From Corallococcus exiguus (GTDB lineage Bacteria; Myxococcota; Myxococcia; Myxococcales; Myxococcaceae): a stretch of DNA of 64,000 nucleotides. The translations under genes were made by a program, and so were the position numbers. This document shows, piece by piece, positions 2,483 to 37,155 of this stretch. The DNA lies in assembly GCF_965139275.1 (NCBI RefSeq), contig NZ_CBCSLE010000005.1. One strand, written 5' to 3'. The notes beneath the pieces are model-generated. The model ran no database searches. It was not told the origin of the DNA and was given only the letters and a program-made list of their open reading frames with translations. The stretch's first letter is position 1; each line of letters starts with the position of its first letter.

Positions 2483-3898
<1,416 letters not shown>

Positions 3899-3924
3899 CA
3901 CGCTCCCCGGTGCGCGAGGCGTCG

Positions 3925-4936: not shown

Positions 4937-6796
4937 TCAGCGCGGCTCCTTTCGCGGGAAGGGCCCTTCCATGCCCCTCGACGCTCCGGAGCCGGACCAG
5001 AAGCCCATGACGTCGCCCACGCGATCCGGATGGGTAGCAAGGTCGGTGCCGAGCCCCACCACCACGAAGCCGACGCACGCCTCGCTCCCGAGCAGGCGCC
5101 GCAGCGCCCACACTTCGAACACGGAGTGCGCGCCGGAGCTGGCGAGGACGAGCACCCGCGCTCCCTTGCGGACCGCTAGTCGCAGCGCCTGCGGACGCCG
5201 AGCCTCCTCCCAAGACACGAGCGTCGCGCCTCGTCCCGGGACGTCATCCCGGGCTGGGACGTCCGTTGCCCCAAGCCGGGACAGCAGCTCCCGGGTCCGC
5301 TCCTGCTGCGATTCCCCGAGCGGCAACACCCGCGTCACGCCGCTCGCCTCGTCCAGCGCGGTCCGGAGCTCCACGACGAGCTCCTCCAGGCCTTCAGCGG
5401 TGGCGGGCCAGGGAGTGGCGGCCACCACCGGGCCGCGTCCCCAGAACGAGAACTCGGCCGGCGTCCACAGCTTGAAGCCGCGCAGCGAGGAAGCGGTGAG
5501 GGCCACCACGGCTAGCAGCGCGAAGAAGGGAGGCAGCAGCAGGGCCACCGCGCGCCGGTAGGACTTCGAGGGACGCGTCGGCGGGGTGGCGGAGGTGAGC
5601 ACGCGCAGCTCCATCTCGGGCTGGCGCACCTCGCCCTCCACCACCTTCTGACGCTGCTGGAGTTCGGTGAGGCGCGTCTCGGTGATGTGGATCCGCGCGA
5701 GCAGCGCACTGGCCTGGCCCTCCAAAGCGGAGAGCCGTGCGATGCGCTCCTTCGCGGCCTCCTCCGCTTCGGCGTAGGCGCGCCACTTCTTCTGGGCCAG
5801 CTCCCGCTGCGAACCGGCGTCCAGCAGGCTGTTCTGGAGGAAGGTCCAGGAGGGGTTGGTCCCCACGACGCGGTCGGAGACGGTGCCACCCGCGGGCCGG
5901 GACTCCAGGGCCCGCACGGCGGCGGTGAGCTGCACCACCTCGGGATGTTCCATGGAGAGATTGGCTCCGCGGGCGGCGAGCTCCGCGCGCAGCTCGGCCA
6001 GCTTGCGCAGCTCGAAGTAGCTCTCGGTCTCCGACAGCACCATCCGGCTGGGCTGCTCACGGGCCGCCTGCTTCAGCAACAGCGCCCTGGCGTCCGAGGA
6101 CTCCGCTTCGATGCGGAAGCGGTTCTTCTCGGTGCGCAGCCGCGCCGCCTCCTCGATGGAGGACTGCCGGTCGAGCGTGAGCTCCGCGATGCCGTTCTCC
6201 TGGCGGAAGCCGTCGTAGTGCGCCCGGGCCTCCTCCAGCTGCGCCTGGACCTTGAGCACCTCCTCGCCCAGCGCCTTCAGCTGCGCCTCGGCCCGAGTCC
6301 GCTCCGAGTCCCGCTGATGGTCCAGGAACACCTGGGTCATGGCGTCGGAGAGCCGGACGGCCTCCTCGGGGCTCGCTGCGGTCGCGGAGAGGGTGAGGAT
6401 GTTGGAGCCGCGGGACACGGCGATGTCCACCCGCCGGGCCAGCGCCTCCAGGGTCACCGGCAGGCCCGTGCGCGTGCGCAGCGCCTCCAGGTTGTTGGGG
6501 AGCTTGAGCGTGTCCATCAGCGTCTGGATCTCCCGCTCGGGGTTCGCCGCCGCGCGCGAGCCCGTGGGCTCCCAGACGAGAATGGTGCGAGCGGTGAACT
6601 CGCGGGGCATCACGGTCTTGGCCAGCAGCACGCCCAGGACGATGCCCGCGACGAAGCACCCGCCGATGATCCGCCAGCGGCGCCGCAGCACCCGCGCGAT
6701 GCGCAGGGGATCAACGGGATACCCGGAGCGCACCGACTCCTGTCGCACGGGCGCCGTCTGCGTTTCGGGCTCCGGGCCCTCTTCCAGCGAGAACAT
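4937..6796 (-). CDS. Polysaccharide co-polymerase (Wzz/Wzc-type chain-length determinant) lacking a C-terminal tyrosine-kinase domain
   Basis: Start at ATG 6794-6796 (MFSLEEGPEPE). N-terminal TM helix (IIGGCFVAGIVLGVLLA), long periplasmic coiled-coil region, second TM helix (AVALLLPPFFALLAVVALTA). No Walker A/B BY-kinase motifs in the C-terminus. Confidence 0.7.
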   Translation of the reverse strand: MFSLEEGPEPETQTAPVRQESVRSGYPVDPLRIARVLRRRWRIIGGCFVAGIVLGVLLAKTVMPREFTARTILVWEPTGSRAAANPEREIQTLMDTLKLPNNLEALRTRTGLPVTLEALARRVDIAVSRGSNILTLSATAASPEEAVRLSDAMTQVFLDHQRDSERTRAEAQLKALGEEVLKVQAQLEEARAHYDGFRQENGIAELTLDRQSSIEEAARLRTEKNRFRIEAESSDARALLLKQAAREQPSRMVLSETESYFELRKLAELRAELAARGANLSMEHPEVVQLTAAVRALESRPAGGTVSDRVVGTNPSWTFLQNSLLDAGSQRELAQKKWRAYAEAEEAAKERIARLSALEGQASALLARIHITETRLTELQQRQKVVEGEVRQPEMELRVLTSATPPTRPSKSYRRAVALLLPPFFALLAVVALTASSLRGFKLWTPAEFSFWGRGPVVAATPWPATAEGLEELVVELRTALDEASGVTRVLPLGESQQERTRELLSRLGATDVPARDDVPGRGATLVSWEEARRPQALRLAVRKGARVLVLASSGAHSVFEVWALRRLLGSEACVGFVVVGLGTDLATHPDRVGDVMGFWSGSGASRGMEGPFPRKEPR

Positions 6797-19690: not shown

Positions 19691-22600
19691 TCAGTACGGT
19701 GCGCACTTCCATTCGTTACGACCGGTGGGACCGCCGTAAGCGAAGCAGGTGGAACCCACCGGCCTGCAGTCCTGACCGTCCGGGTTGACGGGGGGCCAGC
19801 ATTCATTGGATGGGCACCGCGTGCTGCACGAACCCACCAACTGCCAGAGCCCATCGTTGGAAACGCATGCGCCGTCGCTGCACATCTCGAACTGGCTGTT
19901 GCACGTCTGGACCAGGGTGTCCGTGGAGCCGCAGGTACCACTGCCGCTGCAACCCGTGCCAGTCGTCCTCCGGACGGTGTTGCCGCTGCAGTAGGTCGTG
20001 CTCGCGGTGGAGCACGTCTGGACCAAGGTGTCGCTGGAGCCACAGTTGCCACCGCTACAGCCGGTGCCAGTGGTCCTCCGCACGTTATTGCCGCTGCAAT
20101 AGGTCGTGCTCGCGGTGGAGCACGTCTGGACGAAGGAGTCGGAGGACCCGCAGGAGCCGCCGCTGCAACCGGTGCCGGTGCTCTTCCGCACATCATTGCC
20201 GCTGCAGTAGTTCGTGCTCGTGGTGGAGCACGTCTGGACGAGCTGCTGGCTGGACGAGCAGGAGCCTCCGCTGCAGCCGCCATTGACGGTCTGGTAGACG
20301 CTGTTGCCGCTGCAGAATGGGCTGCTGGTGCCCGTCGCGCACGTCTGGACGAGCGTGTCGGTGACGCCACAGGAGCCACCGCTGCAACCGGTGTAGGAGG
20401 TCTTCCGGACGGTGTTGCCGCTGCAGTAGTTGCTGCTCCCGGTGGCGCAGTTCTGGACGACGGTGTCGGTGGAGCCGCAGGAGCCGCCGCTGCATCCAGT
20501 GCCGGTCAGCTTCCGGACGGTGTTGCCGCTGCAGTAGTTGCTGCTGGAGGTGGAGCACGACTCGATGAGCTGCTGGGTGGACGTGCATGCACCGTTGGAG
20601 CAGCCGCCGTAAACGGTCTGGTAGGCACCATTGCCGCTGCAGAAGGGGCCGCTGGTGCCTGTCTGGCACGACTGCACGAGGACGTCGGTGGACTGGCAGG
20701 AGCCACCGCTGCAGGTGCCCGTGCCGGTGGTCTTCCGGACGTCATTTCCGCTGCAGTAATTGGTGCTCGCGGTGCTGCAACTCAGCGCCGTGCCGCCGCA
20801 GGTGCCGGAGCCATTGCACACGTCACCCGTCGTGCACGCGTTGCTGTCATCGCAGCTGGCGCCCGAGGACTTCGGCACGTAGGAACAGGTGCCGTTGGAG
20901 CAGGTGCCGGCGGACTGGTAGCACTGATTGGGCGGGCTGTTGCAGCTCAGCGCCGAGCCGCCACAGGTGCCGGTACCGTTGCAGACGTCGCCGGTCGTGC
21001 ACGCATTGCCGTCATTGCAGCTGGCCCCCGAGGCTTTCGGCACATAGGAGCAGGTGCCGTTGGAGCAGGTTCCCGCCGCCTCGTAGCACTGGCTGGGCGG
21101 GCTGTTGCAGCTCAGCTCCGAGCCGCCGCAAGTACCGGCCCCGTTGCAGATGTCGCCCGTCGTGCACGCGTTGCCGTCATCACAGATCGCACCCAAGGAC
21201 TTCGGCGCATAGCTGCAAGTGCCGTTGGAGCAGGTGCCGGCGGCCTGGTGGCACTGGCTGGGAGGGCTGTTGCAGCTCAGGGCCGCACCACCGCACGTGC
21301 CAGCACCGTTGCAGACATCGCCCGTCGTGCAGGCGTTGCCATCATCGCAGAGGGTGCCCGTGGCCTTCGGCGGGTAGGTGCACGCTCCGTTGGAGTAGGT
21401 GCCCGGCAAGCCATGGCAGGCATCCGGCGGCGTCGTGCAGGCCGGGACGCCCGCGCAGACGCCTGCTCCGCTGCACACGTCGTTGATGGTGCCGCCATTG
21501 CCGTCATCACAGGCCGTGCCCGCCGCCTTCGGCGCATAGGAGCACGCGCCCTCACTGCACGTCCCCGCTGCCTCGAAGCACTGGCTCGGAGGGCTGTTGC
21601 AAGTCACCGGCGTGCCCGCGCACCCGCCCGCTCCGTTGCACGTCTCATCCACCGTGCACGCATCCGCGTCATCACACGAGGCACCGGCTTCCTTGTACGA
21701 ATAGGAGCACGTCCCGTCGCTGCACGCCCCCGCCGCCGCGTAGCACTGCCCCGGAGGACTGCCGCACTGGGTGGCGCTTCCCGCGCACACGCCCGCGCCG
21801 TTGCATACGTCCGTCCCGGTGCACGCATCCCCGTCGTCGCAGGTGGCCCCAGCCGCCTTCAGCGCGTAGCTGCACACGCCATTGCTGCACGTCCCCGCCG
21901 CCTCGTAGCAGGCCCCCGGAGCGCTGTTGCACGTCACCCCAGCGCACGCGTCGTACCCGTAGACCTCCGCCGTCTTCAGGCTCGCGCCGGTGGCGCCAAT
22001 ACCGCCCACCACCAACACCTTGGCCTGCGTCGCCAGCGAGACCGCCACATGCGAATACCTCGCACCGACCATGGGGCCCGCCGCACTCCACTGCCGGGTG
22101 GCCGGGTCGTACACCTCCGAGCTCGCCAGTGCGGCCGTCGCTGCGCTGCCATACATGCCGCCCGTTACCAGCACCTTGCCGGTGCTCAGCAGGGTTGCTG
22201 AGTGCAGCTCCCTGGCCGTGCCCAGCGCGTCCGTCGCGCTCCACTGCCCGGTGCTCGGGTCGTATTCCTCCGCTGTCGCCAGCAGCCCGCTGCTGTTGCG
22301 GCCACCCACCACCAGCACCTTGCCCGAAGGCAGCCGCGTCGCCGTGTGGTTGTAGCGCGCCGCCGCCAGGCTTCCCGTCGCAGCCCACGTATTGCTCGTC
22401 GGGTCATACACTTCCGCCGTCGCCAGGCTCGCGCCCCCGACGCCGCCCGCCACCAGCACCTGCCCGGTCGTCAGCAGCGTCGCCGTATGGTCGCGCCGCG
22501 CCACTCCCAGACTCGGGCCGACACTCCAGGTTCCCGCCACTGGCTCATACACATCCACATTGAACTTGGGGCCGCCGGAGTTGCCACCGCCCGCCACCAG

Positions 22601-23092
22601 CACCTTGCCCGAAGGCAACGGCGTCGCCGTCAGGGAGGCCCGTGCCACGCCCGAGGCAAAGCTCCCCGCGGAGGCCCAGGTATTGGTGTCAGGGGAATAC
22701 ACCGCCGCGGAAGCCAGACGGCCCGTCGCGTTCTCTCCGCCAACCACGAGCACCTTGCCCGAAGGCAGCAGCGCCGCGGTGTGGATCTGCCGGGGCTCCG
22801 GCATGGAGGCGGCCGCTGTCCACGCGCCAGTCACGGGGTCGAAGAGGGTGGAGGAGGACAGATACCCGCTGGCGTTGTAGCCGCCCGTCACCAGCACCTT
22901 GCCGGAAGGCAGCACCACGCCCGCGTGGTACTTGCGGGCCTCCGCCATGGGCGCGGTCTCGGTCCACCCCTCCACCACCAACGGCGAAGCGCTTTGGGCC
23001 AGCGGCTTCTCTTCCGGTGGCTTGCTGCTACAGCCTGCTGCGACAAAGACCAGTCCCAGCAGCAGGACCCTGCTGGCTCTCATCACGTCCAT
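19691..23092 (-). CDS. Giant secreted Kelch / Cys-rich-repeat lipoprotein, tandem paralogue of 16304-19375
   Basis: Lipobox LLGLVFVAAGCSS. N-terminal about 400 aa are near-identical to the downstream paralogue, followed by the same two Cys-repeat families. Confidence 0.85.
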   Translation of the reverse strand: MDVMRASRVLLLGLVFVAAGCSSKPPEEKPLAQSASPLVVEGWTETAPMAEARKYHAGVVLPSGKVLVTGGYNASGYLSSSTLFDPVTGAWTAAASMPEPRQIHTAALLPSGKVLVVGGENATGRLASAAVYSPDTNTWASAGSFASGVARASLTATPLPSGKVLVAGGGNSGGPKFNVDVYEPVAGTWSVGPSLGVARRDHTATLLTTGQVLVAGGVGGASLATAEVYDPTSNTWAATGSLAAARYNHTATRLPSGKVLVVGGRNSSGLLATAEEYDPSTGQWSATDALGTARELHSATLLSTGKVLVTGGMYGSAATAALASSEVYDPATRQWSAAGPMVGARYSHVAVSLATQAKVLVVGGIGATGASLKTAEVYGYDACAGVTCNSAPGACYEAAGTCSNGVCSYALKAAGATCDDGDACTGTDVCNGAGVCAGSATQCGSPPGQCYAAAGACSDGTCSYSYKEAGASCDDADACTVDETCNGAGGCAGTPVTCNSPPSQCFEAAGTCSEGACSYAPKAAGTACDDGNGGTINDVCSGAGVCAGVPACTTPPDACHGLPGTYSNGACTYPPKATGTLCDDGNACTTGDVCNGAGTCGGAALSCNSPPSQCHQAAGTCSNGTCSYAPKSLGAICDDGNACTTGDICNGAGTCGGSELSCNSPPSQCYEAAGTCSNGTCSYVPKASGASCNDGNACTTGDVCNGTGTCGGSALSCNSPPNQCYQSAGTCSNGTCSYVPKSSGASCDDSNACTTGDVCNGSGTCGGTALSCSTASTNYCSGNDVRKTTGTGTCSGGSCQSTDVLVQSCQTGTSGPFCSGNGAYQTVYGGCSNGACTSTQQLIESCSTSSSNYCSGNTVRKLTGTGCSGGSCGSTDTVVQNCATGSSNYCSGNTVRKTSYTGCSGGSCGVTDTLVQTCATGTSSPFCSGNSVYQTVNGGCSGGSCSSSQQLVQTCSTTSTNYCSGNDVRKSTGTGCSGGSCGSSDSFVQTCSTASTTYCSGNNVRRTTGTGCSGGNCGSSDTLVQTCSTASTTYCSGNTVRRTTGTGCSGSGTCGSTDTLVQTCNSQFEMCSDGACVSNDGLWQLVGSCSTRCPSNECWPPVNPDGQDCRPVGSTCFAYGGPTGRNEWKCAPY

Positions 23093-27100: not shown

Positions 27101-27213
27101 CCGGTGCTTCACCCTGCTACAGGTGTTCGCCTTGCTCCGGAATTGGTGTTCGGCTTGTCCCGGAGCCGGTGTTCGGCTTGCTCCGGAATCGGTGATCGGG
27201 ATCGTCCGGAGCA
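27101..27213. repeat. Tandem array of about 4.5 x 23-bp repeats (consensus GGTGTTCGGCTTGCTCCGGAATC)
   Basis: Units at 27122-27144, 27145-27167, 27168-27190 and 27191-27213, plus a degenerate unit 27101-27121. Lies about 200 bp upstream of the lipoprotein gene at 27420. Confidence 0.6.
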
Positions 27214-27419: not shown

Positions 27420-28484
27420 ATGCAGCGCTTTGTCCTCTTGGGTCTTGCACTGCTCACGGCCTGTGCAACGCCTGTCCATCAGGCCGCATCGCCTGTCCAG
27501 CCCAGCCCGGTCTACGTGTTCGAAGGCGTGGAGGTGTTCGGCTCACGCAAGGTGCCCAAGGGCAAGCTGCTGGAGGTCATTGGGATGCCTGCGCCCGGCG
27601 CGCGCTTCAACCTCGAGAAGGGGGAGTTCACGCCGTACCTCATGGAGAGCAAGCCGCGGCTCCTGGCGGCCTACAAGTTCGCGTTCTGCAGGTACTCGAT
27701 GGTGGCCTACCCGCCGACGCGGACGTTCCGGGTGACGGTGGATCTGGTCGATGCCGGAGATGAGTGGCGCATGCCCTTTTCACCCGCGCCGCAGGGCGAT
27801 ATCCCGGAGCCGGAGGGCCTCCTCACGGCCTGGGATGAATACCAGACGGCCTACTGGAAGCTGAGCAGGGAAGGGGCTGTCCCCGAGTACGGCAAGAGCA
27901 AGTGCCATGCCCTCAACTGCCATGGAGGATTCGACCACCCCGAGCTCGCGCCGCTGGAGCAGCGCTTCATGGATGGTGTTCCCCGCAATCTCGACACGCT
28001 GGTGCGGGTGCTGCGTGAGGATCGCAACGACTCCAAGCGAATGGCCACGGTCATGCTCCTGCCCTACATCAACTCACGCGAGCAACTGGTGAAGCTCGTT
28101 CTCCCGTCGGTGCGCGACCCCTACGAGGGTGTGCGCAACGAGGCGCTGCGCCTGCTGGGAACGATGCAGGAGGGACAGCCGCGGGTCATCATCCCGCTGG
28201 AGCCCGTGCTCGAAGCGCTCTGGTACCCGCTCGAGACCGACCGCAACAAGGCAGCCTGGGCGCTCGTGCACATCGTGGAAACCGAAGGCGCCGCCCAACA
28301 GCGGCAGATTCTCGACAAGGCGGGCGCGGTGCTGGTGGAGATGGCTGGAATGCAGCAGAAGACCGATGCCGAGCCTGCTCGCAAGGTGCTCGCCATCCTG
28401 GCGGGGCGGGACCTGGGTGACGAGCCGGCGGCCTGGCACCGTTGGGTCGAGCAGACGCTCGGCTCGAACAGTGCCCATCGGTGA
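27420..28484 (+). CDS. Hypothetical lipoprotein
   Basis: Lipobox LALLTACATP. 354 aa, no recognisable catalytic motifs. Alpha-helical repeat-like C-terminal half. Confidence 0.55.
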   Translation: MQRFVLLGLALLTACATPVHQAASPVQPSPVYVFEGVEVFGSRKVPKGKLLEVIGMPAPGARFNLEKGEFTPYLMESKPRLLAAYKFAFCRYSMVAYPPTRTFRVTVDLVDAGDEWRMPFSPAPQGDIPEPEGLLTAWDEYQTAYWKLSREGAVPEYGKSKCHALNCHGGFDHPELAPLEQRFMDGVPRNLDTLVRVLREDRNDSKRMATVMLLPYINSREQLVKLVLPSVRDPYEGVRNEALRLLGTMQEGQPRVIIPLEPVLEALWYPLETDRNKAAWALVHIVETEGAAQQRQILDKAGAVLVEMAGMQQKTDAEPARKVLAILAGRDLGDEPAAWHRWVEQTLGSNSAHR

Positions 28485-28536
28485 CGAAGATGCTGCGAAG
28501 GCGGCAGTACGGGGGGCGTAACCCCTGGAACGCATT

Positions 28537-28602
28537 GGCGGTAGGGCACGGGAATCGAACTCGCCAGGGACTGCTCTCGCAGCCCCTCACCGGTTTTGAA
28601 GC
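28537..28602 (-). repeat. 66-bp partial copy of the tRNA-Sec 3' end (att-type direct repeat)
   Basis: 64/66 nt identical to 33463-33528 (anticodon loop through CCA). No matching 5' acceptor strand upstream, so it is not a functional tRNA. Confidence 0.7.
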
Positions 28603-28749
28603 CCCGCCACCCCGATCCGCGAGGTGCCCGGGGGGATTGAGGGTCGGCCGGTTTCCCTCTGGCGCGGGGTGGACCGCGAGTCCGTAAAGGTCCACCCGCG
28701 TCCGTTCATCTTGGGTACAGCTTGGGTACGCGGGTAGGGACGGCAGGGG

Positions 28750-29358
28750 TCAGGGGGCATTGGCTGCACCGGGGCCGGTCACGTCCGTGAACTTCGTGCC
28801 GGTGATGACCGCGCGCTCCAGGGCCTCCTTGATCTCCTCGGACACGATCAAGGCCACGGTCCAGCCCCAGGTGCGGAACACCTTGGCGCCTTCCACCTTC
28901 GCCGGGTCGATGCGCATCCCGGACACGGAGGAGTACGTACCCACCTTTTCGGGCATCCCGTCCTCCGGGGTCCAGTAACGCACCTCCTCGCACGCTGCAT
29001 CGTCGATGCACTTCACCAGCCGGGTGGCGTTGAGGATGAAGTGCTGAGCGGGCTGGGAGTCGATCTCCACCGGGATGAGCTGCACGTCGTCGGGTGCCAG
29101 CTCGGTGAAGAAGGAGGCCACCCGGGCGTGGACGACGGGGATGCTGAATGCCGCGTGGGAATAGTCGAGCGGTTTGCCGGAGATCTTGATGGGGATCCTG
29201 ATGCGCTCGTCCGAGTGAGCCCGCTGCCCGATCCTGAACTGCCACGGGTCATCGAGCTTGCGCCCTTCCTGATCGAGAGGATGCCCCAGCTCCCACCGGC
29301 CGGAGAGGTACACATCATCGCTCAACTTGAAGAACCGCGTCGGCATGAAGTCGTCCAT
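28750..29358 (-). CDS. Hypothetical protein, candidate (second) immunity protein of the toxin module
   Basis: 202 aa, cytoplasmic. Last gene of the three-gene minus-strand operon, 10 bp after the preceding ORF. Family uncertain; possibly resembles DUF1629/Imm11-type immunity proteins, from memory only. Confidence 0.45.
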   Translation of the reverse strand: MDDFMPTRFFKLSDDVYLSGRWELGHPLDQEGRKLDDPWQFRIGQRAHSDERIRIPIKISGKPLDYSHAAFSIPVVHARVASFFTELAPDDVQLIPVEIDSQPAQHFILNATRLVKCIDDAACEEVRYWTPEDGMPEKVGTYSSVSGMRIDPAKVEGAKVFRTWGWTVALIVSEEIKEALERAVITGTKFTDVTGPGAANAP

Positions 29359-29368
29359 CCGAGGCGGG

Positions 29369-29719
29369 CTACTCTGGATCGAGCGCCCAGGTTCCTTCTT
29401 CCCAGCGCTTCAATGCCTGCCCGGCTTCAAAGGGAACGAGCCCCTTGCCCTTGGCGGCTTCCTCCAGAACCGCCTTCGCTTCGGCCGTCCGGTAGCGGAG
29501 CAGATGGGCGGCGGCCATGACACGCACATCCATGCGCTCATGCTTGAGCAGGACGAGGAGGGCATCACGTCCTGCGTTTCCATGGGCCAGGAGCGTATCG
29601 ACGGCGGCACCGTACTTCCTGGCGTGCTTGTTCCCGGTCTTGGCATCTCCCCGGAAGATGGCCTCGGTCTGTGCCGCCACGTTCAGGGCGAACTGCTCGA
29701 CCAATCTCTCCAACGTCAT
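29369..29719 (-). CDS. Small helical hypothetical protein, candidate cognate immunity protein
   Basis: 116-117 aa ORF. Its ATG (29717-29719) shares one nt with the toxin TGA stop (29719-29721), the usual toxin-immunity coupling. Confidence 0.45.
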   Translation of the reverse strand: MTLERLVEQFALNVAAQTEAIFRGDAKTGNKHARKYGAAVDTLLAHGNAGRDALLVLLKHERMDVRVMAAAHLLRYRTAEAKAVLEEAAKGKGLVPFEAGQALKRWEEGTWALDPE

Positions 29720-31074
29720 CACCAGACCCCCTTCGCCACGTTCTCCATGGCCAGCAGCCCGAAGTCACGCTGGGCCTCGTAGGACTGCGTGCTCAACCAT
29801 TGCCTCACGGTCAAGGTGCTGGAGCCCGTGATACTACGCCGGATCGACGAGTAGAGCGCGCTGACGTCGGTGTGCAGGATCTTGTCCAGTGGGATGAGGT
29901 TCTCGGTGTTGTGGAGGGCCTGGGGGCCGAAGCGCTTCACGTTGCCCGGGGTTTGCTCGACGATGTGGTGCCACTCCTTGTTCTTGCCCGCCGGGCCCAT
30001 GGCCTTCTTGAAACCACTGAACGAGCTCCAGGCCCTGTAGCCCAAGGGACGCGCCTTGGCGGAGGCGCTGCCGCCCGTGGCTTTGGCCGCCATGGCCACC
30101 GCGCCGGGCGCGAGGGCGATGGTGACGGTCTCGGCGCTCACGGCCACCGTTCCCACGTCCGCGACCGCCGCGAGCCTGATGCCCATTTGCGCTTCAGCCT
30201 GGACCGCCGCCTGCGCGGCGCCTGGGAGCATTGGCACCTTCGACCCCAGCCCCGCCGCCGTGTTCCCAATGGCGGCCGTGGCCAACATGGCGAACGCGCG
30301 CGCCGCGTTGCGGCCCATGACCTTGCCGTAGCGCTCACCCGCCTCGCGGAGTTCGTCAAACGTGGTGGCCCGCTCCGCCTCCTCCACCAGCTGCTTGAAG
30401 CCCAAGATGAGGCTCCAGAACGTATCGACCCCGACGTAGGCAATGAGGGAGGCGGTCATCACGGCGGCCACGCCCTTCGAGAAAGGCTCGGGCACCGCGA
30501 GCAAGATGCAGTACGTGGTCCACGTCCAAAGAACCGCAGCCATCATGGCCTGGGGATCAGCCATCTCTTTGAAGGCGTCCATCATCTCGTCCCGCACGAC
30601 GCCTTGGGCCAAGGCCATGGCCAGGGCGTAACGGCCATCCCCGGTGACAGTAGGGCTCTCCACCAGGAGGCGCAGGCAATCGCCGGGATTGCTCGTTCGC
30701 TCGCACCAGCGCAGGTATGCGCGCGTCAGATCCACCTCTGTCGAGGGGAGATCACCGTCCAGGTGTTCGCCCGGTCCCAGCGGGATGACACGGTGGCTGC
30801 GCGGCTCGTACAGGTATGAACCGCTGCGCGGATCCATCTCGAAAAACCGCCGGGCCGTTTCCTGGGGATGAGTGGACGGACGTACGTTCCGGGCGAGCGC
30901 TTCTACGGCTTCAACGAAGTCGTCTTCGTCCAGCGCCACCGGGGCGGTATCGCCGCTGCGTGGGGTAAGGACGATGGACTCGCCGTGGCCCGTGTGCAGG
31001 CGCACGGACTTCGTGGTGCCGCTGCATCCAGCCAGCATCACGAGCAGTAGGAGAATTGACCATCGTGGCAGCAT
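29719..31074 (-). CDS. Lipoprotein polymorphic toxin with C-terminal WHH-type (HNH/EndoVII superfamily) nuclease domain (SitA-like architecture)
   Basis: Start at ATG 31072-31074 gives signal MLPRWSILLLLVMLAGCSG (lipobox). Long Ala-rich helical central region. C-terminus KEWHHIVEQTPGNVKRFGPQALHNTENLIPLDKILH carries a W-H-H...N...H pattern as in WHH nuclease toxins. Confidence 0.6.
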   Translation of the reverse strand: MLPRWSILLLLVMLAGCSGTTKSVRLHTGHGESIVLTPRSGDTAPVALDEDDFVEAVEALARNVRPSTHPQETARRFFEMDPRSGSYLYEPRSHRVIPLGPGEHLDGDLPSTEVDLTRAYLRWCERTSNPGDCLRLLVESPTVTGDGRYALAMALAQGVVRDEMMDAFKEMADPQAMMAAVLWTWTTYCILLAVPEPFSKGVAAVMTASLIAYVGVDTFWSLILGFKQLVEEAERATTFDELREAGERYGKVMGRNAARAFAMLATAAIGNTAAGLGSKVPMLPGAAQAAVQAEAQMGIRLAAVADVGTVAVSAETVTIALAPGAVAMAAKATGGSASAKARPLGYRAWSSFSGFKKAMGPAGKNKEWHHIVEQTPGNVKRFGPQALHNTENLIPLDKILHTDVSALYSSIRRSITGSSTLTVRQWLSTQSYEAQRDFGLLAMENVAKGVW

Positions 31075-31291
31075 GCGGAGCCCTCCTGGCGCGGGCCCCC
31101 TTCGCTCGGGAGCGTATCGGCGGCGCAAGGCCTAGTAATACCAGATAGAGCTGACAGATGCTCCGGGCTGACGCCGTCTGTGGTGGAGCGTGTGCGGCCG
31201 ACGGCGTGCCTTCTGGAACGTCACGCCGAGAGAGAGCGTGCGCTGTCAGCCCGGTCACCACAGCTTGAGCGTGAAAGGCCCCACCGAGCAC

Positions 31292-31585
31292 CGGACGGTT
31301 ACCTTCGTCTCCGACGCGCGCCTGCCCTTGGACAACAACCGCTCCGAGGCAGCGCTGCGCAAAGCGGCGCTGGGCCGGAAGAACTTCCTCTTCGTCGGCC
31401 ATGAGGCCGCGGGCGAAAACCTCGCTGGCCTCTACGCCCTCGTCGCCACCTGCGAAGCCAACGGCGTCAATCCCGAGGCCTACCTCGCCGACATGCTGCT
31501 GCGCGTCCAGACGCACCCGCTTGCGCGCGTCGGCGAGCCGCTGCCGCACGAATGGGAGCGGCTTCGCGCCGCCGACGCTTCCTGA
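31292..31585 (+). pseudogene. IS66-family transposase (TnpC) C-terminal fragment
   Basis: VTFVSDARLPLDNNRSEAALRKAALGRKNFLFVGHEAAGENLAGLYALVATCEANGVNPEAYLADMLLRVQTHP...EPLPHEW matches the conserved C-terminal about 100 aa of IS66 TnpC (LDNN..E...R.....RKN.LF.GS..GG). No N-terminal about 400 aa and no inverted repeats found. Confidence 0.7.
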
Positions 31586-31779
31586 CGCCACCTCACCACG
31601 GCATTTCTCCCCGCTGGGACTCGCGGCGCCCGCCGAGCACGGCCAGGGCCTGCCTTCAAGCTCGCCAACACGTCATTGGCCGGACAGTTACGATGGATAT
31701 AACATTTAGCTTGTTCTGGGGCCCCTCTCTGCGGTGGCCCGAACAGCGAGGGGACCAAGGGGCCGGTCTTGCCGAAGTG

Positions 31780-33378
31780 CTATTCACCAACAGGGGTGTC
31801 GATTGGTGGAACACCTTCCTTCTGTTGGGGGACCTGTGCAGAGGCGTTTGCCGGCTGTGCGGCAAGGTGAGTTGGAGTCAAGGAAGGGCTTGCATGAAGC
31901 ATAGCTCTTAAGTCGTTTTCGATTTCAGAGAGTATTTTGAGATGAAATATGGCGAACTGGTCGGGATTGAGTCCTTGAGGAGAGGCTGCGCCCGAGAGTC
32001 TCTTGAAGACGTCCGCATGCTTCCTTCGTTTGACCGCTACTTTGTTGCCCTTTCCATGATCGACGTCGTGTCTGATTTCTGTGCGAAGCGTGTTTACATC
32101 TATGAAGGAAGAAGGTGGCGACTCGCCGAGTCGCTCCCCAGGGCCTTCCCACAAAAGAAAGTAAAGGTTGTCGATCAGCTTTTCATATTCTGCGACGTCC
32201 GAAATCAAAACTCCAAGGCTTCTCTGTGCCTTCAGGGTTTTGTTTGTTGGCTTGAAGAGGTCTTTGCCGGTGGCGGATTGAGATTTTGTGTTTATCTGCT
32301 CAATCAGTTCTGCGATTTGTTCTGCCTTGGCGAGGACGTCGGCCTTAGGAGTCGTTTTGGCGATGGCTGTGGCGCCAAAAGCACTGGCCAGTTCAGGGTT
32401 TTTGGTGAGGAGCTTTTTGGTGAGGATGCGCTGTCGGGCCTCTGGGCCGGATTTGATATTGGCGTTGATTGTCTTCTGGAATTCGAGGTAGTCGCGATCG
32501 GTGGCCTTGACCCCTAGTTCTACTTGCTTGGAAAGCTCTTCTGTGAAGGCTTCGGCGAAGCTGGAGAACACCGTCTCGTGTCCAACGGCCTTTCCTGCTG
32601 AGACGAGCGTTGCCGCAAGGGTGAAGATTGATTGAACTATGGTCCGGTTGTGTAGTGCTGGGGAAGGGGCGGGAAAGGATTTGTCGAGAAAGGCTAGTGT
32701 TGATGTGATTCTTTTGGCGACCGCTGATTTTCTTGAGAATGTCGAGTTGTTTTCGAATATCAGCTTGAGGTCGTCAAAGCGAAGGCCTGTTGTGATCCCC
32801 TTGATTTCGATTGCGCAGGCCTTGGCGGCAATGTCGAGATGTGAGTGGCGGTAGTCCTCGACTTGGCATTTTGACTTGAAAAAACTGTGCTTTGATACGT
32901 CGAGTGCGAAGTCGCGCAATTCGCTGTGAATGGCGTTTAGTCTCTCGCTGCTCGTGAGCGGAAGTCCGAGTTGGAGTCTTTGAAAGAACTCCTTGAGGTC
33001 TGATTCAATGGCCCCGGTGATTACGTCGTACTCGATCTCGAAGTCATCGAATTTGTCTGCTATCGCAGTTGGGAGTTCTTTGTAGAGTTTCCCTCCCATT
33101 TGAGTGGGAGAGTCCATAGGGATCTCAAGCTCATTTCCAAAGAAGCGCCAGATGGCCTGAAGGCGCTGCTGCCCGTCGACCACTTCGTACTGGTCGCTGT
33201 CGTTGGACTTCTTGACAAAGTAGAATTTTGGCAGCTTCCATCCGCGTAGGATGCTGTCGATAAGATTCTGCTGAAGCTTTTTGTCCCAGACTTTCCCGCG
33301 TTGCCAATCTGGAATCTCATAGCGACCGCGCCGTGCATAAATCTTGTCGAGAGACCTCTTCTCTGATCTCATTTCCAT
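31780..33378 (-). CDS. DUF262 (ParB/GmrS-like N-terminal NTPase domain) protein with uncharacterised C-terminal domain; candidate defence gene
   Basis: N-terminus YEIPDWQRGKVWDKKLQQNLIDSILRGWKLPKFYF...VVDGQQRL is the DUF262 signature. Gene GC is about 50% versus about 70% for flanking DNA. Confidence 0.75.
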   Translation of the reverse strand: MEMRSEKRSLDKIYARRGRYEIPDWQRGKVWDKKLQQNLIDSILRGWKLPKFYFVKKSNDSDQYEVVDGQQRLQAIWRFFGNELEIPMDSPTQMGGKLYKELPTAIADKFDDFEIEYDVITGAIESDLKEFFQRLQLGLPLTSSERLNAIHSELRDFALDVSKHSFFKSKCQVEDYRHSHLDIAAKACAIEIKGITTGLRFDDLKLIFENNSTFSRKSAVAKRITSTLAFLDKSFPAPSPALHNRTIVQSIFTLAATLVSAGKAVGHETVFSSFAEAFTEELSKQVELGVKATDRDYLEFQKTINANIKSGPEARQRILTKKLLTKNPELASAFGATAIAKTTPKADVLAKAEQIAELIEQINTKSQSATGKDLFKPTNKTLKAQRSLGVLISDVAEYEKLIDNLYFLLWEGPGERLGESPPSSFIDVNTLRTEIRHDVDHGKGNKVAVKRRKHADVFKRLSGAASPQGLNPDQFAIFHLKILSEIENDLRAMLHASPSLTPTHLAAQPANASAQVPQQKEGVPPIDTPVGE

Positions 33379-33462: not shown

Positions 33463-33561
33463 TGGCGGTAGGGCACGGGAATCGAACTCGCCAGGGACTG
33501 CTCTCGCAGCCCCTCATTGGTTTTGAAGACCAAGCCGGCCACCAGGTCCGGAGGCCCTACC
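33463..33561 (-). tRNA. selC: tRNA-Sec (selC-like; anticodon UCA)
   Basis: rc sequence GGTAGGGC-C-...-TTGGT-CTTCAAA-ACCAA-[GGGCTGC-GAGA-GCAGTCC variable hairpin]-..GTTCGATTCCC..-GCCCTACC-G-CCA. 8-bp acceptor stem, anticodon loop CUUCAAA, long extra arm and about 99 nt length, all as in bacterial selC. D-arm and T-stem pairing are imperfect in my hand fold. Confidence 0.6.
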
Positions 33562-34572: not shown

Positions 34573-34750
34573 CGCCAGCCTCCTGGGCCTTCCATCCGAC
34601 GGCCGGAACCCTAGTCCGTGTCTCGGCAATTCCAGGCCTGGCCTGCATGACGGTTTTCACTGGTGAATGAAGCGGGGCCGCTCGTCCGGTGTCCCAGGGG
34701 ACGCCTTGCCCGGCGCGTCATCCGAGCTTCATGATGAGCGCTCTTCCGCC

Positions 34751-37150
34751 ATGCGCCGAACCTTCCGTCCCGTCCCCCTGGCACCGGGCTTCCCACCGGC
34801 GCTCGTCCTGCTGCTGTGTCTGTGTCTGTCCTTGAGCGTCGGGGCAGCCCCGGCGGCGACGAACGCCAGGCCGTTCCGCGTCGGGCCTCCCGCCGCGTGG
34901 GTGAAGCCGCTTCCCATTCCTCCAGACCCCGGCCCGACTCCCGAGGGCGAGGAGGAGACCAGCGTCTCCCGGCTGCTGATCGAGGAACAGGTGCGCGTGT
35001 CCGGCCCATCGCGCGTGCACTACCTGCACTCGGCCCAGAAGGTCCTCTCGCCGCGGGGCATCGACCGCGTCACGGACATCCAGTTCCGCTTCGATCCGAC
35101 GTACCAGAAGCTCACCGTCCACGGCATCTGGCGCATCCGCGACGGCCGCCGCGAGGACGTCTTCCAGCCCGCCGAGGCCCGCGTCATCCAGCAGGAGACC
35201 GAGCTCCAGAACCGGCTCTACAACGGCAACCTCTCCGTGGTGCCCTTCCTCCACGACGTGCGCGTGGGCGACACCGTGGAGGTCGCGTACTCCTTCGAAG
35301 GCGCCAACCCCGTCTTTGGCGGACGCTTCTCCGACGTCGTCGGCGTGGGCCATTCCTATCCCGTGGTCCACTTCGCCTACCGGCTGCTGTGGCCGGAGGG
35401 GCGGGGGCGCACGCTCTTCATCCGGGACTTCGCCGCGCCGGGCCTGTCGCGCTCGGAGTCGATGCTGAACGGCGAGCGTGAAATCATCCTGGAGCGCCGC
35501 CACGTGCCCGCGGTCCGCCACGAGGACAACGTCCCCGGCTGGCAGCCCGTCTACCCGTGGATCCAGTTCAGCGAATACAAGGACTGGAACGACGTCGCGC
35601 GCTGGGCCTCCACGCTGTTCCAGGTGCCCGCCCGCTCGAAGTCGCTGGAGCAGGAGGTCCGCCGGCTTTCGAAGGAGCCCACCCCGGAGGCGCGCTTCCT
35701 CGCCGCGCTTCGCTTCGTCCAGGACGAGGTGCGCTACCTGGGCATCGAGATGGGCCCCAACTCCCACCAGCCCCATCCGCCCGACGAGGTCCTCCAGCGC
35801 CGCTTCGGCGACTGCAAGGACAAGTCGCTCCTCTTGGTGTCGCTCCTCAAGGGGCTGGGCATCGACGCGCAGCCGGCGCTCGTGAGCACGGACCTCACGC
35901 AGCTGCTGGACGGCTTGCGTCCCACCGCCACCGCGTTCAACCACGTCATCGTCCACGCCACCGTGGCCGGCCGCGAGCTGTGGGTGGATCCCACGGCGAC
36001 GCTGGAGCGCGGCGGGCTGGACAGCTACGAGCCGCCCTCCTACGGCCGGGCCCTCCTCGTCGCCCCCGGCACCACGGCGCTCTCCGTCATCCCCACGCCC
36101 ACGCTGACGGAGCCCTCCCTCTTCGTGGACGAGACCTACGTCGCGATGGGCCGCGACGGGGCCGCGACACTCGACGTCGTCACCACGCGCACGGGGGCGG
36201 CCGCCAACTCCATGCGCCGCGCGCTCGCGGGCACATCCCTGTCCGAGGTGTCCCGCCTCTACTTCAACTACTACGCGAAGACGGACGCGGACATCTCCAT
36301 CGCGAAGCCCATGTCGGTGGACGACGACACCGTGACGAACGTGCTCGTCACGCAAGAGCACTACCGCATCGAGGACTTCTGGACCTCGGACGGTCGCCGG
36401 GAGTTCCGCGCGCATGGCCTGCGCCAGCACCTCGCCGTGCCGAACTACTCCCACCGCGCCTTCCCGCTGGAGGTGGAGCACCCCGTCTTCGCCCGCCACC
36501 GCATCACGCTGAAGGCCGGCGAGCTGCCCCCTGTCAAAACGGAGTACGAGGTCGTGGACGGTCCGGCCTTCCGCTTCGTGGCCGACACCCGCGCCGAAGG
36601 CAAGACGCTGCTGCTCGACTACAGCTATCGCAGCACCGCGGACTCGGTCCCGCCCGAGCGCATCGCCGAGTACGTGAAGGCCCTGCGCGCCACCGAGGCC
36701 CAGCGCGGCTACGCCATCCAACTCAGGAGCCGGGCCGCCCGCCACCAGGCCTCATCCGTTCCGTCCGGCGAGGCGGGTGCCATCCTCCTGGGCGTCATCG
36801 CGACGTGCCTCGTGCTGTGGTTCGTCATCGCGCAGGGCGGCCCGGTCGCGCTCTGGCGCAAGGGCCGCGCCTGGGGCCGGCGCCGCGCCTTCGCACGCAA
36901 GTTCGACGCGGACCACCGGGGCGACAGCGCAGGAACCGCCATCCCCATCACCAGCCCCCAGGAGCTGCTCTCCACGCTGGGCCGGCTGCGCTGCGCCTGC
37001 GGAGCCACCAGTGAGGCCCCACGGGAGTCGCTCCGCCACGAGGCCGTCGTCCTGGGCGACCGCCACCTCACCCTGGTGCAGTGGCAGTGCCCCACCTGCG
37101 CCCGAGCCCGCCGCGCCTACTTCGAGGACATGGGCTCGCGCGCCGCCTGA
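34751..37150 (+). CDS. Secreted transglutaminase-like protein (DUF3857/DUF3858 + TGase core)
   Basis: Signal peptide MRRTFRPVPLAPGFPPALVLLLCLCLSLSVGAAPA. Papain-like TGase core FGDCKDKSLLLVSLLKGLGIDAQPALVST. C-terminal TM segment. Confidence 0.7.
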   Translation: MRRTFRPVPLAPGFPPALVLLLCLCLSLSVGAAPAATNARPFRVGPPAAWVKPLPIPPDPGPTPEGEEETSVSRLLIEEQVRVSGPSRVHYLHSAQKVLSPRGIDRVTDIQFRFDPTYQKLTVHGIWRIRDGRREDVFQPAEARVIQQETELQNRLYNGNLSVVPFLHDVRVGDTVEVAYSFEGANPVFGGRFSDVVGVGHSYPVVHFAYRLLWPEGRGRTLFIRDFAAPGLSRSESMLNGEREIILERRHVPAVRHEDNVPGWQPVYPWIQFSEYKDWNDVARWASTLFQVPARSKSLEQEVRRLSKEPTPEARFLAALRFVQDEVRYLGIEMGPNSHQPHPPDEVLQRRFGDCKDKSLLLVSLLKGLGIDAQPALVSTDLTQLLDGLRPTATAFNHVIVHATVAGRELWVDPTATLERGGLDSYEPPSYGRALLVAPGTTALSVIPTPTLTEPSLFVDETYVAMGRDGAATLDVVTTRTGAAANSMRRALAGTSLSEVSRLYFNYYAKTDADISIAKPMSVDDDTVTNVLVTQEHYRIEDFWTSDGRREFRAHGLRQHLAVPNYSHRAFPLEVEHPVFARHRITLKAGELPPVKTEYEVVDGPAFRFVADTRAEGKTLLLDYSYRSTADSVPPERIAEYVKALRATEAQRGYAIQLRSRAARHQASSVPSGEAGAILLGVIATCLVLWFVIAQGGPVALWRKGRAWGRRRAFARKFDADHRGDSAGTAIPITSPQELLSTLGRLRCACGATSEAPRESLRHEAVVLGDRHLTLVQWQCPTCARARRAYFEDMGSRAA

Positions 37151-37155
37151 GACGC

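Follow-up and report, generated by a model that had tools for sequence, protein, structure and literature searches.

A 64,000-nt window of the Corallococcus exiguus DSM 14696T genome (GC content 68.6%) encodes three adjoining ORFs on its minus strand: a toxin gene, ORF2, and ORF3. The toxin gene (31074..29719) specifies 451 residues plus a stop codon from an ATG preceded, 9 nt upstream, by the sequence AGGAGG; its product begins MLPRWSILLLLVMLAGCSG. ORF2 (29719..29369) specifies 116 residues, and its ATG overlaps the toxin stop codon by one base (TGATG). A preceding sequence-only reading of this DNA had listed the same three ORFs and the 1-nt overlap, which stand, and had started ORF3 at the ATG at 29358 (202 residues, 10 nt past the ORF2 stop codon). 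However, the ORF3 start most likely is the ATG at 29346, giving 198 residues (28750..29346) and a gap of 22 nt, because homology with orthologous loci sets in some 10 nt upstream of it, and because every homolog, like the gene call of NCBI, is 196-198 residues long.

All three are genuine genes rather than chance ORFs of a high-GC genome, because they match the SitA5_escort, DUF2019, and Imm11 models, respectively, are conserved in hundreds of loci, and have low dN/dS (0.05-0.38 across the genes). NCBI names their products "SitA5 family polymorphic toxin," "DUF2019 domain-containing protein," and "imm11 family protein." Their close spacing, with a 1-nt overlap and a 22-nt gap, suggests that the three genes are co-transcribed; a promoter and terminator scan of the locus gave no signal above chance.

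The toxin matches the complete NCBIfam SitA5_escort profile (NF050093, positions 1-262 of 262) over residues 9-274 (30253..31050), with E=1.6e-116 and 388.4 bits (cut-off 160), and its sequence is exactly that of WP_139915449.1. The N-terminal type II signal peptide (31024..31074), MLPRWSILLLLVMLAGC, holds the lipobox LAGC (Cys17), with Ser at both +2 and +7. These residues conform to the sorting rule for outer-membrane lipoproteins, no Lys at +2 and no Ala at +7 (PMC5562445); the Pfam LPAM_1 match of the N-terminus is weak (E=0.36). The proposal of a SitA-type outer-membrane lipoprotein toxin is thereby borne out and made specific: SitA5. A long Ala-rich region had been placed directly after the lipoprotein signal. 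Instead, the Ala-rich stretch (residues 236-330, 29% Ala) is a linker C-terminal to the escort domain, annotated at 30085..30252, and does not make up most of the N-terminal region. Within the escort domain, one hydrophobic stretch (residues 176-194) passes a hydropathy threshold of KD>=1.6.

The linker ends in a junction motif, VTIALAPGAVAMAA (30085-30126, residues 317-330). This motif, VTIALAPGA(V/L)AMAA, is kept in four SitA5 proteins with V/L at one position as its sole variation, and the escorts of these four proteins are only 44-76% identical overall. The junction motif marks the putative swap point for tips. The C-terminal toxin region (residues 331-451, 29722..30084) had been described as exchangeable, and it is: the same escort and junction bear an unrelated AHH tip in C. 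caeni (locus L087) and in loci L082 and L084, and the C. exiguus tip also caps divergent escorts and Rhs proteins.

By these features the toxin is an ordinary, already annotated SitA5 kin-discrimination toxin of myxobacteria, and the locus itself is no surprise, because the NCBI label already reads SitA5. Like other members of the SitAI5 family (Vassallo & Wall; PMC8546572), it combines a lipobox and SitA5 escort with a modular, nuclease-type C-terminal tip, has an immunity gene directly 3' in the same operon, and comes from a myxobacterial genus rich in such loci. Unlike them, the C. exiguus locus, known here from sequence, adds an orphan Imm11 gene and adjoins a tRNA-Sec gene instead of lying on the Mx-alpha prophage.

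What the tip itself might do is suggested by its conserved residues. The conserved tip domain comprises 93 residues (359-451). The motif KEWHHIVEQ...LH, taken earlier for the end of the protein, covers residues 366-401 and is not the very end, because 50 further residues follow before the C-terminus. The tip-family alignment has invariant columns at W368, H369, H370, E373, N392, and H401 (W-H-H..E..N..H). In an AlphaFold2 model of the domain (pLDDT 94.7), strands occupy domain residues 8-12 and 35-39, and a helix occupies residues 40-50; the invariant H11 and H12 end strand 1, N34 falls just before strand 2, and H43 lies in the helix, with an N-to-H spacing of 9. The predicted model thus contains the beta-hairpin and helix of the HNH/EndoVII superfamily, and W368 to H401 (29872..29973) form its predicted beta-beta-alpha-metal core. 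Domain residues 45-93 constitute a helical extension with a strongly conserved motif, YSS...TVRqWLstQS.

The tip family is without a Pfam model. At E<=1e-3 it numbers 2163 clusters (50% identity), in which the domain is nearly always C-terminal; carriers include SitA proteins, RHS-repeat/Tc toxins, proteins beginning with Rhs-tip motifs, and lipoproteins. The only recurring nuclease model is Pfam HNH_2, matched by 20 of 135 family representatives (best E=0.0015) and, below its cut-off, by the C. exiguus tip (E=0.12, alignment from W368 to T402). Through this nearest Pfam model the tip can be likened to that of SitA5-Mf1 ("HNH nuclease, PF13391"; PMC8546572). The top Foldseek hits are mostly HNH domains, none of them significant, and a profile search of PDB sequences with the tip found no HNH protein. 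We infer that the tip most likely is an HNH-superfamily, metal-dependent DNase.

ORF2 matches Pfam DUF2019 (PF09450; 26.8 bits, cut-off 23.3, E=5.3e-6) and aligns end to end with the DUF2019 structure PDB 2i9c (E=0.002). In 80/80 myxobacterial loci the tip is immediately followed by a homolog of ORF2. The same holds for four of four distant, non-SitA loci, where the homologs score 30-43 bits and neighbouring control ORFs score nothing. Moreover, DNA homology over a 1.8 kb unit ends at the ORF2 stop codon. On the strength of these associations, ORF2, a HEAT-like protein under firm constraint (dN/dS 0.05-0.07), is the predicted cognate immunity gene, sitI. The tip and DUF2019 quite probably make up an undescribed toxin-immunity pair that spans phyla. 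If so, the pair provides a function for DUF2019 and for PDB entry 2i9c: the fixed partnership assigns to a domain of unknown function with a solved structure a testable role, as an immunity protein.

ORF3 has different affinities. It matches Pfam Imm11 (PF07791; 46.8 bits, cut-off 22.1, E=2.9e-12), yet an Imm11 homolog is found in none of the 80 loci bearing this tip. Its nearest relatives (P0251 and P0248, 92-93% identity; P0265, 85%) are encoded 15 nt downstream of genes for SitA5-like proteins that match Pfam AHH, as are its orthologs in L082-L085 and L087; the C. caeni Imm11 gene that occupies this site is 95.2% identical in DNA sequence. AHH-Imm11 is the canonical pair, and M. xanthus DK1622 has eight ahh-imm11 loci in its SitAI5 family (PMC12077181). 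In C. exiguus the Imm11 gene follows another immunity gene and not its AHH, HNH, or SHH toxin. ORF3 is therefore an orphan at this locus: ORF2, not an AHH tip, precedes it, unlike its orthologs. Of the two candidate immunity genes proposed earlier, ORF2 holds as the putative immunity gene for this toxin; ORF3 in that role is not supported, given its co-occurrence with AHH tips and, in the 80 loci, never with this one. The layout of toxin, immunity, and orphan immunity genes was nevertheless read correctly. The ORF3 reading frame is intact (dN/dS 0.16-0.25), and its product probably still protects against AHH-tipped toxins of relatives.

The three genes lie in a 4.9 kb islet bounded by a tRNA-Sec gene (33467..33561, minus strand; identified by ARAGORN and by Rfam RF01852, 68.9 bits, gathering score 47) and by a 69-nt direct repeat (28536-28604, minus strand) of its 3' part, from the anticodon loop to the CCA end. 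The repeat is 96% identical to 33463-33531, and as a tRNA-Sec it scores 33.5 bits, below the Rfam gathering score. Such a pairing of a tRNA gene with a distal repeat of its 3' part is a feature of tRNA-integrated genomic islands. Placement of the cassette on a tRNA-integrated element, as first proposed, is supported in part by this arrangement; against it, the genes up to 10 kb to either side include no integrase, and the same sitA5 cassette elsewhere occupies other, mostly non-tRNA sites. Also in the islet, an IS66 transposase remnant (31289..31691, plus strand; Pfam DDE_Tnp_IS66 and IS66_C) retains only positions 314-386 of the 387-position transpos_IS66 NCBIfam profile and abuts the 5' end of the sitA5 cassette. 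A DUF262/GmrSD_N gene (31780..33378, minus strand; Pfam GmrSD_N, E=2.1e-20; PADLOC NsnA, E=2.1e-27) is islet cargo unrelated to the toxin. Both are absent from C. caeni.

The same tRNA gene adjoins sitAI5 loci in C. caeni and in two Myxococcus genomes (L082 and L083), and in C. llansteffanensis (L093) the orthologous tRNA-Sec is followed, 112 nt on, by an integrase gene. All of the orthologous tRNA-Sec sites recovered, these four, are occupied; the remaining methyltransferase homologs are paralogs in other contexts. The tRNA-Sec gene is a recurrent integration site in Corallococcus. The C. caeni site has three copies of the tRNA-Sec repeat and two tandem islets, where the window has one islet.

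Comparison of these same-site alleles reveals what has changed. The window and C. caeni share the tRNA-Sec and methyltransferase flank, and align at 92% identity over 31102-30086 and at 93% over 29361-28535. The intervening block alone differs: homology to the AHH allele stops at 30086, and the segment 30085-29362 comprises the tip and ORF2 in C. exiguus, with an AHH tip in its place in C. caeni. The AHH-Imm11 alleles (SitA5-Mf2 type; PMC12077181) share with the C. exiguus toxin the escort family and junction motif, the chromosomal site (in C. caeni and both Myxococcus genomes), and Imm11 genes orthologous to ORF3 (85-93% in protein, 95% in C. caeni DNA). They differ in the tip, which hhalign aligns with the C. 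exiguus tip over the WHHI stretch alone (probability 2%), and in immunity, being served by an alpha+beta Imm11 protein where the C. exiguus toxin has a helical DUF2019. ORF3 thus appears to be the intact orphan of a displaced allele, because Imm11 is missing from loci with this tip, its relatives accompany AHH, and the C. caeni allele occupies the same site. This suggests, with considerable confidence, that the C. exiguus locus is a sitAI5 cassette of outer-membrane exchange in which an HNH-like tip and its DUF2019 immunity gene replaced an AHH tip, leaving the Imm11 gene behind. (The left recombination boundary is loose, because escort identity is 92.2-92.7% to the HNH-type alleles L008 and L009, located elsewhere, and 92.1% to C. 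caeni, so that replacement of the whole gene would look no different from a tip swap.)

The tip had been assigned to the WHH clade of HNH toxins, Tox-WHH (PF14414), with both downstream genes as its immunity, one cognate and one a spare of the same type. [quoted passage not shown] Nevertheless, PF14414 matches neither the whole toxin (E<=1), nor the tip alone (E<=10), nor any of the 135 family representatives (E<=1). The defining motifs of Tox-WHH are WHH, L, H, and HxG, and its listed partners are Imm-SUKH, Imm28, and Imm37 (Zhang et al. 2012). The conserved columns of the tip family include WHH and a later His but no HxG, the long conserved helical extension also distinguishes the C. exiguus tip, and the partner is DUF2019 in 84/84 loci. 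The tripeptide is not diagnostic, because the Pfam-AHH tips at this same locus read PWHHIASD. Membership of the tip in Tox-WHH is accordingly not supported, and with ORF3 homologs missing from all 80 loci that bear this tip and paired with AHH tips instead, the combined assignment is very unlikely. A toxin that is not a nuclease at all, with a new fold, another target, and His and Asn residues devoted to different chemistry, would account for the lack of any significant sequence or structure match to a solved HNH protein, and for a helical extension that no known HNH domain explains. This too is unlikely: the invariant His-His, Asn, and His fall exactly at the canonical HNH positions in the model, sub-threshold HNH_2 matches recur, the leading Foldseek hits are enriched in HNH domains, and the SitA tips characterised so far are nucleases (PMC8546572, PMC5562445).

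The history of the locus also admits another account, in which toxin, DUF2019, and Imm11 genes arrived as a unit on one recently integrated tRNA-Sec element, with no swap in situ. Its appeal lies in the 4.9 kb segment, bounded by the direct repeat, with a GC content of 61% against 68.6% for the window, containing an IS66 remnant and a low-GC gene, and with an integrase-bearing element at the same tRNA in C. llansteffanensis. However, the lack of an integrase within 10 kb to either side is awkward for this account, and the low GC is due mainly to the DUF262 gene (51% GC), which C. caeni lacks. In addition, none of the 80 related loci has the trio of toxin, DUF2019, and Imm11, and C. caeni has the same islet boundaries around an AHH allele, with an Imm11 gene and distal flank 93-95% identical to those of the window. 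The shared boundaries and this identity indicate that the Imm11 end of the islet is common by descent and that just the tip-plus-ORF2 block differs. Arrival as a single unit is therefore judged highly unlikely.

Replacement of the tip and its immunity gene at a resident locus can be joined with published SitA5 work into a model. SitA5 would be made as a lipoprotein, anchored in the outer membrane, and passed to neighbours with a compatible TraA/TraB receptor. By analogy with characterised members, which have modular tips and ExbB1-dependent entry (PMC8546572), the escort domain would carry it across the recipient envelope, with an ExbB1-dependent step. The 93-residue tip would then kill recipients that lack the matching immunity protein; from the predicted model, H370 could act as general base and H369 and H401 as metal ligands, with N392 in a structural role. 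Presumably, the matching protein is the HEAT-like DUF2019 encoded by ORF2, translationally coupled to the toxin. ORF3 would be the Imm11 gene of an AHH-tipped SitA5 allele that formerly occupied the same tRNA-Sec-adjacent site. Recombination may have removed the AHH tip and brought in the new tip and DUF2019 as a block, with its left end at the VTIALAPGA(V/L)AMAA junction and its right end some 10 nt short of the Imm11 start codon, so that the old Imm11 gene remained intact downstream.

The locus adds to the myxobacterial kin-recognition barcode, to which each genome contributes 25-80 sitAI loci. It has some value in that C. exiguus and C. caeni offer before-and-after alleles at one site, with breakpoints at base level. 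The allele pair illustrates how a strain can change its toxin and retain immunity to the ancestral one, an asymmetric step of the kind by which a kin group would be expected to split. A broader and rather doubtful proposal concerns the site itself: sitAI5 cassettes might enter the 3' half of tRNA-Sec as small, integrase-less units with integrase supplied in trans, of the kind present at this tRNA in C. llansteffanensis, each arrival adding one cassette with a 69-86-nt repeat, such that the site would be a cassette array that builds up and reshuffles the barcode.

Displacement of CdiA-CT/CdiI and Rhs-CT/RhsI modules (Poole et al. 2011, cited in PMC10047993) offers a close parallel. There, too, tip and immunity gene move together, at a conserved junction (VENN in CdiA, PxxxxDPxGL in Rhs) to which VTIALAPGA(V/L)AMAA would correspond in SitA5, and older immunity genes and tip fragments remain downstream. 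The systems differ in delivery, which for SitA5 is outer-membrane lipoprotein exchange and involves no secretion apparatus, and in the orphan, which in C. exiguus is an immunity gene alone, with no old tip fragment upstream of it. Arrays of truncated tips and DUF2019 genes are present in loci L008, L011, L026, and L035; C. caeni has a decayed array.

The locus comprises three minus-strand ORFs, all recovered by an ORF scan where the sequence-only reading had placed them: the toxin gene sitA5 (31074..29719, 451 aa, beginning MLPRWSILLLLVMLAGCSG), with AGGAGG 9 nt 5' of its ATG; ORF2 (29719..29369, 116 aa), whose ATG has one base in common with the sitA5 TGA (TGATG); and ORF3. Read from the ATG at 29358, after a 10-nt gap, ORF3 specifies 202 aa. 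Homology with orthologous loci begins only about 10 nt 5' of the next ATG (29346), and every ORF3 homolog, like the gene call at NCBI, is 196-198 aa, so the true product probably is the 198-aa protein that starts there. The window derives from contig JAAAPK010000002.1 (assembly GCA_009909105.1), which belongs to Corallococcus exiguus DSM 14696T (PMC9323933). Scanning the locus for promoters and terminators returned nothing above chance.

The main call of that reading, a SitA-type lipoprotein toxin, is borne out. The NCBIfam model NF050093 (SitA5_escort) matches toxin residues 9-274 over its full 262 positions (E=1.6e-116; 388 bits, where the cut-off is 160), the lipobox is LAGC, and an identical RefSeq protein (WP_139915449.1) is annotated "SitA5 family polymorphic toxin". 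The locus belongs to a known, already annotated kind. Published work on SitA proteins describes four features: the lipoproteins move from cell to cell in TraA/TraB-dependent outer membrane exchange; the family-defining amino-terminal escort domain controls cytoplasmic entry; resistance to SitA5 maps to ExbB1 (MXAN_1448); and the carboxyl-terminal tips are modular nucleases (PMC8546572). By analogy with this published biology, the window SitA5 would be transferred by exchange, enter through its escort, and act through a nuclease tip. The sorting rule for the outer membrane is no Lys at +2 and no Ala at +7 (PMC5562445); Ser at both positions predicts outer-membrane localisation. PADLOC found no matches for the toxin, ORF2, or ORF3 proteins.

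The tip (residues 331-451) ends in a conserved 93-aa domain (residues 359-451), which had been assigned to the WHH nucleases. This assignment fails: the Pfam WHH model (PF14414) does not match the isolated tip even at E<=10, nor any of 135 tip-family representatives at E<=1. The AHH model likewise matches neither. The only Pfam match of the tip is to HNH_2 (PF13391), below threshold (E=0.12; W368 to T402), and HNH_2 also is the sole recurring nuclease model among the 135 representatives (20 members, best E=0.0015; LHH matched once). In Zhang et al. 2012, Tox-WHH has WHH, L, H, and HxG as its defining motifs and Imm-SUKH, Imm28, and Imm37 as its partners; the tip fits neither motif set nor partners, and membership was rejected. 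Nor does the WHH tripeptide tell the families apart, since Pfam-AHH tips that occupy this locus in other genomes likewise read PWHHIASD.

Alignment of the domain with its relatives (n=49) identified eight invariant residues: W10, H11, H12, E15, N34, H43, R66, and G81 (domain numbering; add 358 for protein numbering). An AlphaFold2 model of the domain (pLDDT 94.7, pTM 0.84) contains a strand at 8-12, a second strand at 35-39, and a helix at 40-50. H11 and H12 close strand one, N34 comes before strand two, and H43 lies within the helix; this predicted placement is the canonical beta-beta-alpha-metal arrangement. With the model as query, Foldseek gave a best E of 1.2, although Cas9 HNH, SciA, Gme HNH, and Cas5-HNH account for many of its highest-ranked matches. 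Searches of PDB sequences with the tip by phmmer and profile hmmsearch returned nothing beyond chance similarity to a mycobacterial membrane protein that is unrelated, and when the tip family was compared with the AHH tip by hhalign, WHHI alone aligned (2% probability). Together, profiles and model indicate that the domain very probably is a divergent HNH-superfamily nuclease, nearest to HNH_2. (SitA5-Mf1 likewise is annotated with HNH PF13391 in the literature; PMC8546572.)

An exhaustive profile search with the domain recovered 2163 representative clusters at E<=1e-3. (The initial search, with the 122-aa tip, gave only proteins of <=207 aa, an effect of the search and of short contigs, not of biology.) The domain lies nearly always at the extreme carboxyl terminus, in proteins from about 100 to 2411 aa. 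The five longest carriers are RHS-repeat or Tc-type toxins, and many others start with an Rhs tip motif or a lipobox. Terminal placement on such carriers is, as judged from these architectures, the signature of a polymorphic-toxin tip.

Which gene protects against this tip? A scan of one genome per species yielded 310 tip loci, and the best 80 of the 310 were fetched. In all 80, 2-15 nt separate the tip from the start of an ORF2 homolog (58-96% identical). The window and its closest relatives among these loci are homologous in DNA from about 20-190 nt upstream of sitA5 to the ORF2 stop codon and no further, which defines a 1.8 kb unit. The tip-ORF2 pairing also holds far beyond SitA: behind each of four divergent non-SitA tip genes, located after YD-shell genes, beside an integrase/ParE island, or on low-GC metagenomic contigs, comes an ORF with a score of 30-43 bits against the ORF2 profile. 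Neighbouring control ORFs at these four loci give no score. ORF2 is the predicted cognate immunity gene.

ORF2 matches Pfam DUF2019 (26.8 bits; cut-off 23.3), with HEAT_2 sub-threshold, and aligns end to end with PDB 2i9c (E=0.002), a Rhodopseudomonas protein whose function is not known. The available part of Zhang et al. 2012 and the searchable literature contain no link between DUF2019 and immunity. One point of interest is a tip-DUF2019 pair that spans phyla without a family model. Tandem arrays of extra DUF2019 genes lie downstream of the tip in seven fetched loci (L008, L011, L013, L018, L026, L035, and L048), some preceded by truncated tip fragments; the order in L035 is tip, sitI (the ORF2 gene), tip residues 35-93, sitI, tip residues 69-93, sitI. 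Comparable orphan arrays occur in CDI and Rhs loci.

ORF3 tells a different story. It is an Imm11 protein (Pfam, E=2.9e-12) with at least 889 relatives in its family, almost all myxobacterial among the matches listed, and had been put forward as a second immunity candidate for this toxin. That role is contradicted: no ORF3 homolog occurs in the best 80 of the 310 tip loci, and its relatives pair with AHH tips. The closest (P0251 and P0248 at 92-93%, P0265 at 85%) are encoded 15 nt 3' of 451-458-aa lipoproteins with Pfam AHH tips. AHH-Imm11 is the established pair, and strain DK1622 contains eight ahh-imm11 loci in the SitAI5 family (PMC12077181). ORF3 is intact, and its dN/dS against partnered orthologs (0.16-0.25) is like that of the escort (0.23). 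These features, with the AHH partnership, identify ORF3 as an orphan, an immunity gene that stayed behind when its allele was replaced; it probably still is useful against the AHH-tipped SitA5 toxins of relatives. The proposed order of toxin, immunity gene, and orphan immunity gene thus stands.

The Corallococcus caeni locus (L087, GCA_036245885.1) provides the other allele. Its neighbourhood is that of the window: response regulator, TPR/Zincin gene, 97-aa ORF, methyltransferase, and tRNA-Sec. Three segments align: window 34716-33463 with 1596-2850 (91% identity); 31102-30086 with 3603-4618 (92%); and 29361-28535 with 4986-5810 (93%). Only window 30085-29362, tip plus ORF2, differs, and C. 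caeni has an AHH tip there. The two alleles, before and after, make an unusually clean pair at a single chromosomal site. (In the window, a 799-aa DUF3857/transglutaminase-core gene, 34717-37154, separates the 97-aa ORF from the methyltransferase. C. llansteffanensis has this gene too and C. caeni lacks it, so it is an indel in a conserved flank.)

Divergence of the two proteins begins right after VTIALAPGA(V/L)AMAA (residues 317-330), a motif kept, with the one V/L alternative, across SitA5 proteins whose escorts are 44-76% identical overall. This motif looks like the recombination junction of the family. The segment identities were rejected as proof of a tip-only swap: the window escort is 92.1% identical to that of C. 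caeni and 92.2-92.7% identical to those of HNH-type alleles located elsewhere (L008 and L009). The left crossover therefore is not fixable, and replacement of the whole gene is equally possible. The AHH tip is shuffled among divergent escorts too, since in Myxococcus (L084/L085 3621-5594, CP144335.1; a different site, no tRNA) an AHH-tipped SitA5-like gene with Imm11 has a tip nearly identical to the Corallococcus AHH tip and an escort only 44% identical to the window's.

The module had been described as sitting on a tRNA-integrated element. Half of this claim is borne out. In its favour, a 4.9 kb islet is enclosed by a tRNA-Sec gene (33467-33561, minus strand; 68.9 bits in Rfam) and, at the other end, by a 69-nt copy (28536-28604, minus strand; 96% identical) of the 3' part of that tRNA, spanning the anticodon loop through the CCA end; against it, there is no integrase gene within 10 kb on either side. 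The islet is a remnant at best. It also contains a DUF262/GmrSD_N gene (31780-33378, minus strand; 532 aa, 51% GC against 68.6% for the window; best PADLOC match NsnA, E=2.1e-27), probably a recently acquired defence gene, and the carboxyl-terminal part of an IS66 transposase (31289-31691, plus strand), directly adjoining the sitA5 cassette at its 5' boundary. C. caeni has neither of them at this site. The closest sitAI5 relative has, at a distance of about 3.7 kb (L001 9046-9321), a remnant 92% identical to the IS66 one; there is a hint that IS66 elements travel with sitA5 cassettes.

Other genomes carry different material here. C. caeni has three repeat copies, and thus two tandem islets; the second (L087 5811-6668) retains only the last ~21 codons of this same tip, plus a DUF2019 gene interrupted by two in-frame stops, and so is a decayed orphan module. 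Two Myxococcus genomes have an AHH-Imm11 allele adjoining tRNA-Sec, without the distal repeat. In C. llansteffanensis (L093 8034-14969, RAWB01000017.1), a phage-type integrase gene lies 112 nt after the orthologous tRNA-Sec, along with a T5orf172/MUG113 gene and one for a DUF3854/DUF5906 protein of 775 aa; the far end is beyond the fetched locus. This is an integrative element at the same site, and tRNA-Sec therefore is a genuine integration hot spot. An empty site, sought through methyltransferase orthologs, was not recovered (three of four look-ups led to paralogs inside NRPS clusters). Elsewhere the sitA5 cassette occupies unrelated sites, mostly away from tRNAs; no flanks in common were found among the best 80 of the 310 tip loci. 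Adjacency to tRNAs as a general rule was rejected: a tRNA lies within 5 kb at just 7 of 60 loci, and in several cases it faces the wrong way.

Directly flanking the islet is a gene for a 354-aa HEAT-repeat protein (27420-28484, plus strand) that itself carries a lipobox (MQRFVLLGLALLTAC); in Myxococcus (L082), too, the Imm11 gene at this site has a HEAT_2 gene after it. Between this gene and a glycosyltransferase-like gene lie three to four intergenic tandem copies of a 23-nt unit (GGTGTTCGGCTTG.TCCGGA..; 27122-27212). Finally, a very large repetitive ORF (>1133 aa), which has no Pfam match, contains at window 20000-23000 long in-register coding repeats whose periods are 108-111, 165, and 141-150 nt, each present in 5-7 copies.
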